Of a stretch of DNA of 64,000 nucleotides, positions 1,804 to 5,257 are shown in pieces. Position 1 is the first letter of the stretch. Every line of letters begins with the position of its first letter. The translations under genes and the position numbers were made by a program. Location of the stretch: positions 1-64,000 of IMG/VR virus record IMGVR_UViG_2595698888_000001; one strand, written 5' to 3'. This DNA is from a virus (lineage: Duplodnaviria > Heunggongvirae > Uroviricota > Caudoviricetes). The notes below the pieces were generated by a model. That model made no database searches and had not been told where the DNA came from. It saw only the letters and a program-made list of their open reading frames with translations.

Positions 1804-2436
1804 TTAAATCCTAATAATCTTGATACTCTTTAATAACCCATTCCAATATGCAGGAGTACCACCAGTATAAGAACCACCTATGCTAAAATTCGTACCAGCA
1901 CCAAATGGACTCAATGTATGCCTCTGCACTAAACCATTAACAGTAGTTGTTATTCCAGTACTATCTACCTTAAATGATACAATATCCCAACCAGTATTCA
2001 CTACCGTACCAAACTGTATAGTCCTGTAAGTACTTCCAGAATCCATAAACATCTGATACACCCCCGCTGATGGATTGTTACTCATATTCATCCCAGGTAT
2101 TCGTCCAACATTATAATCACCAGTGCAAAATATTTCTCCTACAGGAGCAGAGTTGTTATTAAGTACTAACTGAATCTCAAAACTATGTCCGGGTAATGTT
2201 AAGTACGCATTCATCGGACATATGTACTTAGTATTGTTAAAACGCATTACATTAGATCCTAGTACTTCATTATACTCAACCACCCCAGATGTAGTTCCTG
2301 ATTGTAACGAAAATATACTATGTCCAGTACGGTCTATAATAGAAGTATCTCCAACTGATTGCGTACTAAAATCAATATCAAGTACTACTTCCTTTCCTAT
2401 ATCTCCGTACCGGAATATCCTTGCAAATGGTAACAT
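1804..2436 (-). CDS. tail fibre-like protein paralog (210 aa as called)
   Basis: N-terminus MLPFARIFRYGDIGKEVVLDIDFSTQSVGDT shared with other two fibre ORFs; G/T/S-rich. Confidence 0.5.
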   Translation of the reverse strand: MLPFARIFRYGDIGKEVVLDIDFSTQSVGDTSIIDRTGHSIFSLQSGTTSGVVEYNEVLGSNVMRFNNTKYICPMNAYLTLPGHSFEIQLVLNNNSAPVGEIFCTGDYNVGRIPGMNMSNNPSAGVYQMFMDSGSTYRTIQFGTVVNTGWDIVSFKVDSTGITTTVNGLVQRHTLSPFGAGTNFSIGGSYTGGTPAYWNGLLKSIKIIRI

Positions 2437-3526
2437 ATCTAACCCTCTTATTAAAATTATAATATAGTATTTACTTAGGAGTACTACAATAACCAGTACT
2501 CCAGTACTATAGAAGAACTTATCAACTTCTCAAATATCCCCTCAATATACCCTTAGAACGCTATAGGAAACACTCAGAGAGCATATGTTTGATTCCTGTA
2601 GATAACGCTTTGCGATATCGAAAGGATTCAAACAGCCTAAAATAACGTTTACGATATGCGTCACTCTATATTATAATACTTTAAAATTATATATTATCAC
2701 TATCTTTCTAGTACTATTCAACGTATAAGATAAAAGAATATCAGTACTAATCAGTACTGACAACTATTGTTCAGTACTGTTAACCCCTTCCACTATATCT
2801 GTTCCTGAAGTCGAATGCAAACCGCACAAAAAGTACAGTAACCTTTTTTCAAAAATGATAAGATGAGGTGAGGGAAAATCTGGAAGGTACGTGAAATCAA
2901 ATACCGATCCTAAAAATTTTGGAGTACCTTCGAAAGTTTTTCTGAGATCTCAAAAGTACTCAAACGTAAAAACCAATCAGCAAAATTTCATTTGATACTT
3001 TATTTTTATTGATGATCATTACAGTACTGAACAACGATACAGTACACAGGTGGTAGGTATTATATCAGTACTTGTATATGTCAGAAAATGTAAAGAGCTT
3101 TTAAAATTATAGAATCAGCTTGACGAGAGCGGGTGGATTTAGTATTATGGATTTACACGGTGAGGGGAGGCAATTGAGCCTGGTTCTTACAAGTACTGAC
3201 ATTACTTTTGATGATGTTGGTCATGATACAATTTACCGTATCATTTTCGATCCTCTTTATTGCTTAGGAAATATTGAGTACTAAGTATATTGTAATAATT
3301 GAGTACTTTGTATAGTACTATGTAGTATGCATTTATATTTGACGGTGTACGCCAATATGAATGGATAATGCTAGTACTATACAGTTTTAATTGAGAAAAG
3401 GTACAGATACAGTAACAGTACTGTTACCCTGAATTTTGGGTGTACTATCCCTATCTGCTATCGTTAGATGGATAGACTTCTGGCAGTGTAGATGGATAGA
3501 TGTTTATACGTCTGGACTGCTATCCT

Positions 3527-3590
3527 TCTGGATGGCTAAACGGCTAGATGGCTACCCATCTGGATGGATAGACGTTTAGACGGCTAAATG
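3527..3590. repeat. four tandem 16-bp iteron-like direct repeats (CTRGAYGGMTA core); further copies at 3467 and 3491 and inverted ctatcc copies at 3447/3520
   Basis: ctggatggctaaacgg / ctagatggctacccat / ctggatggatagacgt / ttagacggctaaatga in exact 16-bp register. Confidence 0.6.
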
Positions 3591-3788
3591 ATTTTTTCTG
3601 TCAAAATTCCATTAGCTCCCCTTCCGCGACTGGATGGAACCAGGCAGAATCGAAAGTCGTCTTTTCGTGTTGACAGGGATATAATACCACACTGAAAAAC
3701 AATTGCAAGGGATTTTTTGCAGAAAAATAAATTTGACAAGTGATTCAGGATTATAGTACTATATAAGCAAGCCAGAGAAATGGCGTCG

Positions 3789-3857
3789 CCCACAGGGTGC
3801 GGAGATCTGCCTATTGATATTTAAATGAATTTTGGATACAATTCCGCACCCTGTGGG
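3789..3857. repeat. long inverted repeat (cccacagggtgcgga ... tccgcaccctgtggg) with about 40-nt AT-rich loop; member of 26-bp element family
   Basis: perfect 15-bp arms; same element recurs at 6618-6686 and 22899-22969 and as single copies elsewhere. Confidence 0.6.
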
Positions 3858-4246
3858 TCAAGGAGTTCCGCCTCCATGTAAGATATTATGCCAGTACTGC
3901 GATCATAATGCAAGTACTTTTTGTGATTTTCTTTAAAAAAGTTTCCCCTTCTATATACGTATAAAGGAAGCGTTTAGAGCGTGTCAGATCCTGGGGCTTA
4001 CAGTTTTGTACTTTATACTTTATAAAGCCGTGTAAAGCGTCCTATGCGTTCTATGTTTGCGTATGTGTATATAGAGAAGAAAAAGGCTGTTAGAAAGAAT
4101 TTTATAAAAACTTGTATAAAGTACTTGCAAGGTTTTTTCGGTGTGATAGTATTAACCACGTCGAACAGGACAACGCTCTTTAAAAACTTGCTGGTGAATA
4201 CTTAAACATGCCTCCAGGTACTTTGAAAAAAGAATCTGAGAGAATG

Positions 4247-4282
4247 AAAAAAGTACTTGACGGCAAGATTAGAAAGTGTAGA
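4247..4282 (+). promoter_or_regulatory. sigma70-like promoter (AAGTACTTGACG - spacer - TAGAAT) preceding an ORF-free GC-rich segment
   Basis: -35/-10 hexamers with 16-17 bp spacer and AGTACT immediately 5' of -35 as in other promoters of this window. Confidence 0.4.
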
Positions 4283-4491
4283 ATGTTCAATATCGAAAGG
4301 CGGCAAGGTTCGCCGGATGGTAGGAAACGGTGGCGGGGCGATTCAGTACTGCTACAGTGATAAGCGAAAAGAGCTATCACAGCGTTATAAAGGTTAACAT
4401 AACTGTTAACGTCCTATCTGCCGCCCGACGATGCTTTCTGTACTGTAAAAGGTACGAAAGAAAAAAGATTCAGAAAGTTATCAAAAAGTAC

Positions 4492-4520
4492 TTGACTGCC
4501 TGAATCGCACGATGTAAGAT
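4492..4520 (+). promoter_or_regulatory. promoter TTGACT-17-TAAGAT for gene 4583-5257
   Basis: aaaaagtacTTGACTgcctgaatcgcacgatgTAAGATg; RBS aaggtatataatcATG follows. Confidence 0.5.
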
Positions 4521-4582
4521 GTTAAGCAAGCCAGATGGCTAACCCAAAATTCAAAATTTAACTTTTAAGAAGGTATATAATC

Positions 4583-5257
4583 ATGACTACTACTAACACC
4601 ACTAAAGCCGCAAAAGTTACTCTGAACTCTATCGTGTTCGCTGCCGCCCCGGTTCTGCGTGAACTGAAAGAAGGTGAGTCTTACACCAAAACCGAAATGA
4701 AGCAGTTTGAAAAAGAACTGGCCGAACATGTTCGCACTACGTCGCTGGATCTGGCACGTTACATCGTGAACAAAACCGAAAACACCGACCTGATTTCCAA
4801 ACTGCTGGCGGCGACGGTGGAAGCGATTCCTTCTGTGGTTGATGAAGTGCTGAAAGCGAAACAGGAAGAAGAAGCCCGCAAAGCGGAAGAAAAACGCAAA
4901 GCGGAAGAAGAACGTCAGGCCCAGCTCCAGGCCGCCGCTGAAGAACTGGAGAAGAAAAAACAGGATATGCTTAAAGTTCTGACTGATAACGGCGTGGATC
5001 TGGAAGTCGCCAAAGCGATGGTAGCCGCTGGTGCGAAAAACCTGGCTCCGGCTCATGCGGTGAAAAACTCTTACGAACGTGTATCCTGCACTATTGAAGG
5101 CAATCAGTACGATGTTCCGGTGCGTGGCAACATGTCTCAGGCACTGAAAGACCTGGCAGCGAAATACGGTTTCGCCGATGACCGCGAAGGCTTTATCGAA
5201 AAATTCCGCGATGAACCTGCAACGGCGAACGCTGAAGAAAACACCGCCGAAGCGTAA
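4583..5257 (+). CDS. hypothetical Lys/Glu-rich coiled-coil protein with anomalous (about 50% GC, E. coli-like) codon usage
   Basis: 224-aa ORF; central KAEEKRKAEEERQAQLQAAAEELEKKKQ; ctg/cgt/ccg/gaa codon bias unlike rest of window; not recognised as a known family. Confidence 0.65.
   Translation: MTTTNTTKAAKVTLNSIVFAAAPVLRELKEGESYTKTEMKQFEKELAEHVRTTSLDLARYIVNKTENTDLISKLLAATVEAIPSVVDEVLKAKQEEEARKAEEKRKAEEERQAQLQAAAEELEKKKQDMLKVLTDNGVDLEVAKAMVAAGAKNLAPAHAVKNSYERVSCTIEGNQYDVPVRGNMSQALKDLAAKYGFADDREGFIEKFRDEPATANAEENTAEA

Follow-up and report, generated by a model that had tools for sequence, protein, structure and literature searches.

What could a long and regular run of short DNA repeats be doing in a gene-free stretch near the start of a jumbo phage genome? 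The question is raised by the first 64,000 nucleotides of the IMG/VR virus record IMGVR_UViG_2595698888_000001, referred to here as the window, in which an earlier note made from the sequence alone described an iteron-like array and named three things that it could be: an origin bound by an initiator, a partition site or an operator array for a repressor. Positions 2400-5200 of the window match positions 2400-5200 of the record of Cronobacter phage vB_CsaM_GAP32 with 100% identity; the coordinates coincide and the window is the start of that record, GAP32 being a Rak2-like jumbo myovirus of the genus Mimasvirus with a genome of 358,663 bp. The array is located in 2.1 kb without a credible gene, in agreement with the block of about 2 kb poor in open reading frames (ORFs) that had been described. 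On the left of this stretch are GAP32_001 and GAP32_002, both minus-strand genes, the latter of which ends at 2436, and on its right GAP32_005 starts at 4583 on the plus strand. Of the three identities offered, the operator array is right in kind, as the repeats match the metbox, the operator box of the host repressor MetJ, whilst neither an origin nor a partition site found support. Judged by its sequence, the element is a very long MetJ-type operator array, well conserved and with no tie to a promoter, and it is likely that it binds MetJ.

The array consists of 15 tandem 8-bp units in one unbroken register from 3466 to 3585 (120 bp). Read as MetJ-type boxes with the matrix of PMC3228920, and without a strand, these are AGATGGAT AGACTTCT GGCAGTGT AGATGGAT AGATGTTT ATACGTCT GGACTGCT ATCCTTCT GGATGGCT AAACGGCT AGATGGCT ACCCATCT GGATGGAT AGACGTTT AGACGGCT. 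A decayed 16th unit of no assigned strand, AAATGATT at 3586-3593, scores -2.0 bits in GAP32 and is a better box in the related phages XbC2 (AAATGGTT), Kaldavass (AAACGGTT) and BF (AAACGCTT), where it is counted as box 16. Tandem Repeats Finder returned periods of 8, 16 and 32 over 3508-3586, and six of the 12 matches to GAYGGMTA on both strands of the window fall inside 3467-3586 in a single 8-bp register. The motif CTRGAYGGMTA, which had been reported four times at 16-bp spacing in 3527-3590, is exact at 3528, 3544 and 3560 and has one mismatch in the fourth copy at 3576 (TTAGACGGCTA); all four are indeed 16 bp apart, but the true repeat is one of 8 bp and the array extends further than was claimed. 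The further copies placed at 3467 and 3491 are found at both positions as GATGGATAG, which occurs again at 3563, and of the two inverted ctatcc copies one is at 3520 as described (3520-3525), whilst the other is at 3445-3450 and not at 3447. The latter belongs to a TATC-rich left flank, CTATCCCTATCTGCTATCGTT (3445-3465, no strand), which is not made of boxes (-9.8 to -29 bits in register) and is kept in the relatives CBB and BF. A TATC/ATCT run resembling this flank (e.g. CTATCTATCTATCTATCC) is present at 260-350 of the T7-like podovirus PGT2, just beyond its terminal repeat. Coding readings of the region were rejected: the ORFs at 3436-3579 (plus strand) and 3584-3793 (minus strand) are short, and a short minus-strand ORF starting at 3612 differs from relative to relative in both length and sequence when the DNA is aligned.

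MetJ operators are built of tandem 8-bp metboxes with the consensus AGACGTCT, each bound by one MetJ dimer, at least two adjacent boxes being needed, and the exact 8-bp tandem register is their defining layout (PMC4239095, PMC3228920). Boxes were scored with the weight matrix of PMC3228920 (Table 3), in which the consensus scores 12.58 bits, the cut-off for a single box is a quarter of this (3.145 bits) and an operator is at least two adjacent boxes with a summed score no lower than that of the consensus (12.58). Against this threshold the 15 adjacent boxes total 92.5 bits, with 13 of them reaching the cut-off and a mean of 6.2 bits per box, and in the remaining seven registers the mean box scores run from -4 to -24 bits. 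The runner-up array in the window reaches 12.8 bits, and 200 first-order Markov sequences of 64 kb gave a maximum of 21.4 bits (mean 14.7, standard deviation 1.8). The scan was checked on 7 kb of E. coli K-12, where known operators took the two highest places, that of metJ/metB with 31.2 bits and that of metF with 24.9 bits (4 boxes each), and their means per box were 6.2-7.8 bits versus 6.2 in the phage array. The consensus of the array, AGACGGCT, scores 9.48 of the possible 12.58 bits, a value reached by only 0.018% of 8-mers.

The resemblance extends to the individual positions of the box. A base-frequency matrix made from the 15 GAP32 boxes correlates with the published one at a Pearson r of 0.89 in this register and at no more than 0.10 in the other seven, and in 126 boxes pooled from Rak2-like phages the published half-box preferences return, down to the second choices (at position 1 A before G, at 2 G before A/T, at 3 A before C, at 4 C before T, and at 8 T). 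The placement is unlike that of a host operator: host metboxes are on average ~75 bases from the start codon of a methionine-related gene, whereas at the GAP32 array there is no met gene nearby, no promoter overlaps it and the nearest predicted promoter is ~90 bp off. The earlier note had looked to candidate phage DNA-binding proteins as the binder, for which the match of the units to the box of a host protein gives a different answer.

Repeats not conserved in close relatives while the flanking DNA is had been named by the earlier note as an outcome that would speak against its reading. The reverse was found. The array is conserved in register, with 12-19 boxes, in eight relatives, the phages belonging to three genera of Rak2-like jumbo phages. 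Beside GAP32 (15 boxes, 92.5 bits) these are CBB (15 boxes, 91.6 bits), XbC2 (16, 110.0), Kaldavass (16, 106.6), BF (16, 103.4), pEa12 (17, 109.9), Yen9-04 (12, 72.9), vB_Ec-M-J (19, 123.6) and 121Q (19, 116.2). In the more distant relatives, namely the Serratia phage BF, the Erwinia pEa_SNUABM phages and the Yersinia fHe-Yen9 phages, nothing in a 2.8-kb query can be aligned at the DNA level except the array and ~300 bp to its right, the flanking gene giving no such alignment, and in the E. coli 121Q/PBECO4 group the array aligns together with ~40 bp to its right. That the array outlasts the flanking gene in the BF, Erwinia and Yersinia phages favours a function. Length differences in the multiple alignment are multiples of 8 (+8 in pEa12 relative to BF, -24 in Yen9-04 and about +40 in vB_Ec-M-J). 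The end boxes AGACGTTT AGACGGCT followed by AAA are nearly invariant, vB_Ec-M-J alone having GGACGGCT in place of AGACGGCT, and the rare changes from one orthologous box to another are of a tolerated sort (A/G at position 1, C/A at position 7 and T/G at position 6).

Where the array lies on the chromosome can be judged from these same relatives. The records of CBB, XbC2, BF and pEa12 all have as their first base the one homologous to GAP32 2796, which marks the putative left boundary of a long direct terminal repeat (...CCCCTTCCACTA / TATCTGTTCCTGAAGTCGAAT, 2796-2816, plus strand). In CBB the repeat is the first 22,456 bp, as estimated from read depth, and its second, right-hand copy is preceded by the same upstream sequence as GAP32 2796. 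According to the respective papers the start of the XbC2 record was set by PhageTerm, and the ends of E. coli phage fEgEco12 were verified with PhageTerm and with restriction digests; the fEgEco12 array is at about 784-914. The distance from the array to the left end is ~670 bp in Mimasvirus and Eneladusvirus and ~800 bp in Asteriusvirus. By homology to these relatives, the GAP32 array most likely lies ~670 bp inside the left end of a direct terminal repeat of roughly 20 kb. The GAP32 record itself does not display a terminal repeat of ~20 kb, and the left boundary is probably 2796. The sign of the GC skew changes at ~2750-2900, which is the putative repeat boundary and the switch in gene orientation, and not at the array. 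An ATCTGTT at the boundary resembles the T7 RNA polymerase pause signal, and as it is not conserved in CBB or BF it is treated as a coincidence.

A blastn search with the 141-bp array found it also in phages that are unrelated to the Rak2-like group. Matches among T7-like podoviruses were to the genus Ermolevavirus (PGT2 and phiKT), and there was also one to Klebsiella phage KPV811 (42.6 kb); those among T5-like siphoviruses were to phages of Vibrio (Pontus and many Thalassavirus phages, VPT02, pVp-1 and JSF10/12), of Aeromonas (AhSzq-1 and AhSzw-1) and of Providencia (PR1 and PSTCR5), and Vibrio phage vB_VorS-PVo5 was matched as well. With the matrix there are 9 boxes in each of PGT2, phiKT and PR1, 10 in VPT02, 17 in Pontus and 28 in AhSzq-1, the last totalling 221 bits with every box above the cut-off. 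The PGT2 array (38-109) is within a 260-bp terminal repeat with nothing to its left, and that of PR1 is at 9.62 kb of a 10.46-kb left repeat, in the untranslated region corresponding to the injection-stop region of T5. In Pontus, VPT02, AhSzq-1 and PR1 the array is no more than ~150 bp from perfect DnaA boxes. Beside the array and the DnaA boxes, the Vibrio T5-like phages have a further motif in many copies, GGTGCAAAT(T/C)C (Pontus, reverse strand, 2640-3100; VPT02, 3480-3700).

PGT2 and GAP32 share more than the box type: in both the last boxes follow one another in the same order and the terminal signature AGACGTTTAGACGGCTAAA is present, with 83.6% identity over 67 bp. PGT2 (2123-2362) and 121Q (2845-3081) have a common early protein of 79 amino acids (75% identity, Pfam DUF7249), the gene for which is 1.3 kb from the metbox array in 121Q and 2.0 kb in PGT2, and is not in the GAP32 window. 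Given the box order common to PGT2 and GAP32 and the DUF7249 gene common to PGT2 and 121Q, it is plausible from these sequences that left-end modules have been exchanged between phage families.

The recorded hosts of the phages with an array are Enterobacterales, Vibrionales and Aeromonadales, with the single exception of XbC2. MetJ is present in every genome examined of these three orders and in none of the Xanthomonadales, and Cronobacter sakazakii is among the species in the MetJ literature survey. No similar long array was found in 5,426 complete E. coli genomes or in 72,556 plasmid records at the sensitivity of blastn, and no MetJ homologue is encoded in 50,697 phage records. The presence of the same array in unrelated phages suggests that, if the boxes are what they resemble, phages recruit or soak up the host regulator MetJ.

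What, then, would a phage gain from so many MetJ sites? The array is unlikely to be a classical operator, because no promoter overlaps it and it has three to four times the number of boxes of the E. coli operators scored. In PGT2, PR1 and AhSzq-1, too, no sigma-70 promoter overlaps the array. The reading we favour, tentatively, is that it acts as a high-capacity sink for MetJ loaded with S-adenosylmethionine (SAM). In a host cell containing SAM, SAM-loaded MetJ dimers would each occupy one 8-bp box and touch their neighbours, and cooperative loading, as expected from known metbox behaviour, would give a continuous MetJ filament along the 120-bp array. As phage genomes multiply, their boxes would come to outnumber MetJ and pull it from the met operators of the host, so that the supply of methionine and SAM would rise; a SAM-dependent roadblock ~90 nucleotides downstream of a conserved leftward promoter could be a secondary effect. 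A sink is favoured because 15-28 boxes far exceed what repression needs and because the arrays of PGT2, PR1 and AhSzq-1 have no promoter nearby beyond chance expectation; a role in capacity also fits better than a precise architecture, since the number of boxes changes freely by whole units. Multicopy operator DNA does titrate repressors, and this is the basis of the Fur titration assay. The MetJ-SAM axis is already a target of phages, in that phage SAM lyases degrade SAM and thereby switch on the met pathway (PMC7877911). The chance that the array both binds MetJ and acts independently of a promoter seems to us evenly balanced. Were MetJ binding granted, we would give a sink as the main role somewhat less than an even chance, hold a roadblock or insulator acting in cis to be a lesser candidate and an architectural role at the DNA end to be a fainter one. 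Taken without that condition, a sink seems to us less likely than not.

Several observations weigh against this interpretation. MetJ binding is itself predicted from sequence, and the boxes show a single clear deviation, as position 6 is G in 47% of the 126 Rak2-like boxes and in ~10% of host boxes, so that the real binder could differ slightly in specificity. The pattern of substitutions across orthologous boxes does not significantly follow the information content of the metbox (Spearman -0.28, p = 0.5, on few changes), and the weak boxes GGCAGTGT, ATCCTTCT and ACCCATCT are kept at the same positions in relatives, which hints at a constraint beyond that of being any metbox. The array is also dispensable, since both T5, in whose first 13 kb there is no metbox array, and the Klebsiella phage KP13-7 are without it. 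XbC2 was recorded on Xanthomonas vesicatoria, which belongs to an order without MetJ; its G+C content is 37.5% versus ~65% in that host, and its closest relative among the matches infects Erwinia. With regard to the mechanism, a single infecting genome would bring only 15-30 boxes, which may be too few early in infection, and T5 degrades host DNA early in infection, so that derepressing host genes would be pointless if the T5-like phages with arrays do the same.

The alternative that survives best, although we regard it as unlikely, also has MetJ-SAM bound to the array but makes the selected role a local one, with the array as a SAM-dependent roadblock or insulator for transcription across the non-coding leader. 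Its chief target would be the transcript of a predicted sigma-70 promoter directed towards the array (TTGCAA-16-TATTAT, with TG before the -10, at 3708-3681 on the minus strand, found by a consensus scan), which has an estimated start near 3674 and the array ~90 nucleotides downstream; in the right-hand copy of the repeat or in concatemers the transcript would head toward the virion genes GAP32_002 and GAP32_001, whose place and strand to the left of the block suit this idea. The promoter is at the same place in three genera despite its differing sequence (TTGCAT-16/17-TAATAT in XbC2 and BF, TTGACA-17-GATAAT in Asteriusvirus), which also speaks for a roadblock. So does what lies between it and the array, a highly conserved block at 3603-3671 (minus strand; alignments and RNAalifold) with a covarying hairpin, a Shine-Dalgarno-like GGAAGGGGAG and an ATG (3612-3610), which is conserved more strongly than the array itself. 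The pairing of the hairpin is kept through compensatory changes (CTGG/CCAG, CTAG/CTAG and GGGG/CCCC) across three genera, with five pairs changed on both sides according to RNAalifold and a consensus energy of -15.3 kcal/mol on the minus strand, which uses G-U pairs, versus -11.2 kcal/mol. The ORF opened by the ATG is about 3 to 14 codons long and variable in sequence. The block is probably the leader of a leftward transcript (we infer the strand), and the predicted order along this transcript is the hairpin, the Shine-Dalgarno-like sequence with its short variable ORF, and then the array.

To the right of this promoter is a second predicted sigma-70 promoter (TTGACA-18-TACTAT, 3733-3762, plus strand, from a promoter scan), the first one downstream of the array to read into the early genes, which is kept in CBB, XbC2, Kaldavass, BF, Yen9-04 and KP13-7. 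Just after it a 16-bp inverted repeat, GCCCACAGGGTGCGGA ... TCCGCACCCTGTGGGT, with its arms ~40 bp apart (3788-3860, plus strand, from the sequence and alignments), can be followed out to Klebsiella phage KP13-7 and E. coli phage EJP2; it could serve RNA processing or be bound by a protein. KP13-7, an Alcyoneusvirus of the Rak2 group proper, keeps these flanking landmarks and, in the absence of metboxes, has 19-mers resembling the Fur box (up to 16/19) at the place homologous to the array (1716-1830), in the loop of the inverted repeat (2061-2085) and 1.4 kb downstream (3502-3526). There are 12 such hits of at least 14/19 in KP13-7 versus 0.69 expected and a maximum of 5 in 200 shuffles. One Fur-like box is present in the same loop in BF (1034), pEa12 (1042) and Yen9-04 (344); no Fur boxes were found in GAP32 2437-4582, and CBB and XbC2 have none either. 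From these motifs it seems that the Rak2-like leader collects sites for nutrient-sensing host repressors and that the repressor can be swapped. A Fur-like box in a loop just past the rightward early promoter, as in KP13-7, BF and Yen9-04, is typical of control in cis and is thus a further point for a local role.

Against a roadblock is the sheer excess of boxes, 15-28 compared to 4 in each of the E. coli operators scored, when two to five are enough for MetJ repression in the host. A promoter scan showed that the promoter-like sites near the arrays of PGT2, PR1 and AhSzq-1 are not beyond chance. In PGT2, where the array is 38-109 bp from the end of the DNA, nothing lies to its left, and the leftward transcript of GAP32 is a prediction from sequence.

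A further possibility, and a distinctly unlikely one in our view, is that the array is an architectural element of the chromosome end, where a filament of host protein would aid the entering DNA by way of a ratchet, an anchor or a pause, shield the end or assist the processing of concatemer junctions. Such a role would agree with the array being inside the terminal repeat wherever the termini are known, and with KP13-7 having boxes for another host protein at the same place, as any suitable host DNA-binding protein would do. The closest parallel is the injection-stop region of T5, which is likewise a non-coding, highly conserved cluster of host-protein boxes in a long terminal repeat that outlasts the neighbouring genes; the PR1 array, at 9.6 kb of the 10.5-kb repeat, is at the place homologous to the T5 stop signal, and the metbox arrays of the Vibrio, Aeromonas and Providencia T5-like phages stand there beside the DnaA boxes. 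GAP32 shares the untranslated leader in a terminal repeat, but it has no DnaA boxes and its array is ~0.7 kb from the left end and not at the far end of the repeat, whilst T5 has no metbox array. We know of no two-step DNA transfer in Rak2-like phages. The distance to the end ranges from 38 bp to 9.6 kb between families, there is no known mechanism by which proteins on DNA that has already entered would stop entry, and the T5 model of a stop signal formed by DnaA boxes is itself an in-silico proposal.

Lower still in likelihood we place a binder encoded by the phage with a similar 8-bp tandem mode, either a ribbon-helix-helix protein such as a plasmid centromere-binding protein or a small terminase subunit, which would make the element a phage operator, a partition site or a packaging site. 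The excess of G at position 6 is found in all three phage families, as a different binder would predict, and the AGACGTTTAGACGGCTAAA signature and last-box order common to GAP32 and PGT2 suggest a horizontally moving cassette that could carry its own binder; PGT2 and 121Q also share an early gene near their arrays. However, that gene is the DUF7249 gene absent from the GAP32 window, and the other PGT2 proteins without a known function have no match in the window or in the T5-like loci compared. No phage record searched encodes a MetJ homologue, Pfam found no initiator, partition, ribbon-helix-helix or other DNA-binding domain in the first ten GAP32 genes, and the host range of the carriers follows the taxonomic range of MetJ. 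As to a terminase site, the array is 670 bp inside the putative left end and the same array is found in T7-like, T5-like and Rak2-like phages, the terminases of which are to our knowledge unrelated, as are their packaging and replication enzymes. The idea that the asymmetric boxes all point the same way with respect to the DNA end was considered and rejected, as PR1 has both polarities.

An iteron-built replication origin is very improbable indeed. In its favour, the repeats are direct and non-coding, A+T-rich DNA is nearby (29% G+C at 3201-3400) and the cumulative GC-skew minimum falls within this 2-kb block. Against it, none of the first ten genes is an initiator gene, there is no DnaA box at 2400-4700 (neither TTATCCACA nor the relaxed TTWTNCACA), the skew check proposed by the earlier note puts the turn at ~2800, at the putative chromosome end with its switch in gene orientation, the same array is carried by phages with unrelated replication systems and the 8-bp unit matches a known host operator. 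Neither is the array itself the A+T-rich unwinding element that was to be looked for, because at 42-44% G+C it is the G+C-richest part of a block that is A+T-rich throughout. A partition site is no better placed, as no partition ATPase or centromere-binding gene is annotated or found by Pfam in the first 9 kb.

Other identities were tried and set aside. For a structured RNA, Rfam gave only three microRNA-type chance matches (19-21 bits versus gathering scores of 50-98), and conservation tracks a DNA palindrome in strict 8-bp register and not an RNA feature. An RNA sponge for CsrA would have only about six GGA on the plus strand, and the invariant last boxes AGACGTTT AGACGGCT have none. TrpR also binds 8-bp tandem sites, needing ACTAGT/GNACT, whereas the array has (T/G)CTAGA and no ACTAGT. 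No convincing sites for LexA, PurR, TrpR, CRP, FNR, NrdR, ArgR or TyrR were found in 2437-4582.

The leader has some further features of its own. A hairpin at 3262-3290 (GCTTAG...CTAAG) with AGTACT in its loop shows a compensatory change to GTTCAG...CTGAAC in BF and pEa12, and is downstream of a conserved promoter, TTGACG-17-TATTAT (3120-3148). For the annotated GAP32_003 (3147-3284) the DNA alignment with relatives is poor, and it is perhaps not a gene. The palindrome AGTACT is present in 290 copies in the 64 kb versus ~21 expected from base composition, the next palindromic hexamer occurring 62 times. It is densest at 2000-4000, is found at 3.7 per kb in coding and 7.0 per kb in non-coding DNA, often as CAGTACTG with weakly constrained flanks, and is frequent too in the leaders of CBB, XbC2, BF, vB_Ec-M-J and KP13-7.

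How new is such an element? As a type of element the MetJ operator is familiar, and what is new here is its size, its carrier and its context. The array agrees with the E. coli and Salmonella operators (consensus AGACGTCT; metJ/metB and metF) in the 8-bp unit, the exact head-to-tail register with TA junctions, the base preferences position by position (r = 0.89) and a comparable mean box score. It differs in the number of boxes (15 here and 9-28 in other phages, compared to 4 in the E. coli operators scored), in the frequent G at position 6, in having no adjoining met gene or overlapping promoter and in being in the terminal repeat of a virulent phage chromosome. Full-text literature searches on MetJ or metbox together with phage, which did not cover the GAP32 genome paper, gave no report of metbox arrays in phage genomes, and the array is unmentioned in the passages retrieved from the CBB, fEgEco12, Sharanji and XbC2 papers.

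Among better known systems the nearest in function would be decoy or titration sites, such as the E. coli datA locus for DnaA and the multicopy Fur boxes of the Fur titration assay. These also consist of many good promoter-free sites with an effect that grows with copy number, whereas the phage sites are on a replicating virulent phage and would be aimed at a host metabolic repressor. Decoy sites for transcription factors in general are treated in PMC8599769. Our literature searches found no description of a phage-borne DNA decoy for a host metabolic repressor. Nearest in form are the heptad arrays of the plasmid omega protein and the ParG and ParR centromeres, which are short repeats bound by ribbon-helix-helix proteins; they too are 7-11 bp repeats in long tandem runs occupied by cooperative dimers of the MetJ fold, but their unit sequence is another one and they adjoin their own partition or regulator genes, of which none was found at the GAP32 array. 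T7 reportedly has two short-repeat arrays, SRL and SRR, beside its terminal repeat, for which we know of no binding protein. What they share with the present array is that degenerate short repeats lie upstream of the early promoters and beside or within the terminal repeat, in a phage whose ends are fixed, but the T7 unit is CCTAAAG-like with an irregular spacing of ~12 bp and is not a metbox.

A wider generalisation, which is doubtful, is that virulent phages of at least three unrelated families carry and horizontally exchange terminal-repeat decoys for host nutrient repressors, in the form of long MetJ arrays with Fur boxes in their stead in the Klebsiella Rak2-like phages. For annotation, repeats in phage leaders that look like iterons should be compared with the motifs of host transcription factors before they are labelled an origin. 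For phages that are candidates for therapy, the array suggests that the methionine and SAM status of the host could affect infection. If the decoy reading is true, replicating phage DNA would strip the repressor off the host chromosome and turn on the acquisition of methionine and SAM (or of iron), so that host metabolism would be reprogrammed by non-coding DNA alone, without a phage protein or RNA. Phages are known to rewire host metabolism by means of enzymes such as SAM lyases and of auxiliary metabolic genes; plain DNA that captures a metabolite-sensing host repressor would be another way of doing so, and a very cheap one, and it would account for the puzzling non-coding arrays of repeats that jumbo, T5-like and T7-like phages conserve in their terminal repeats.

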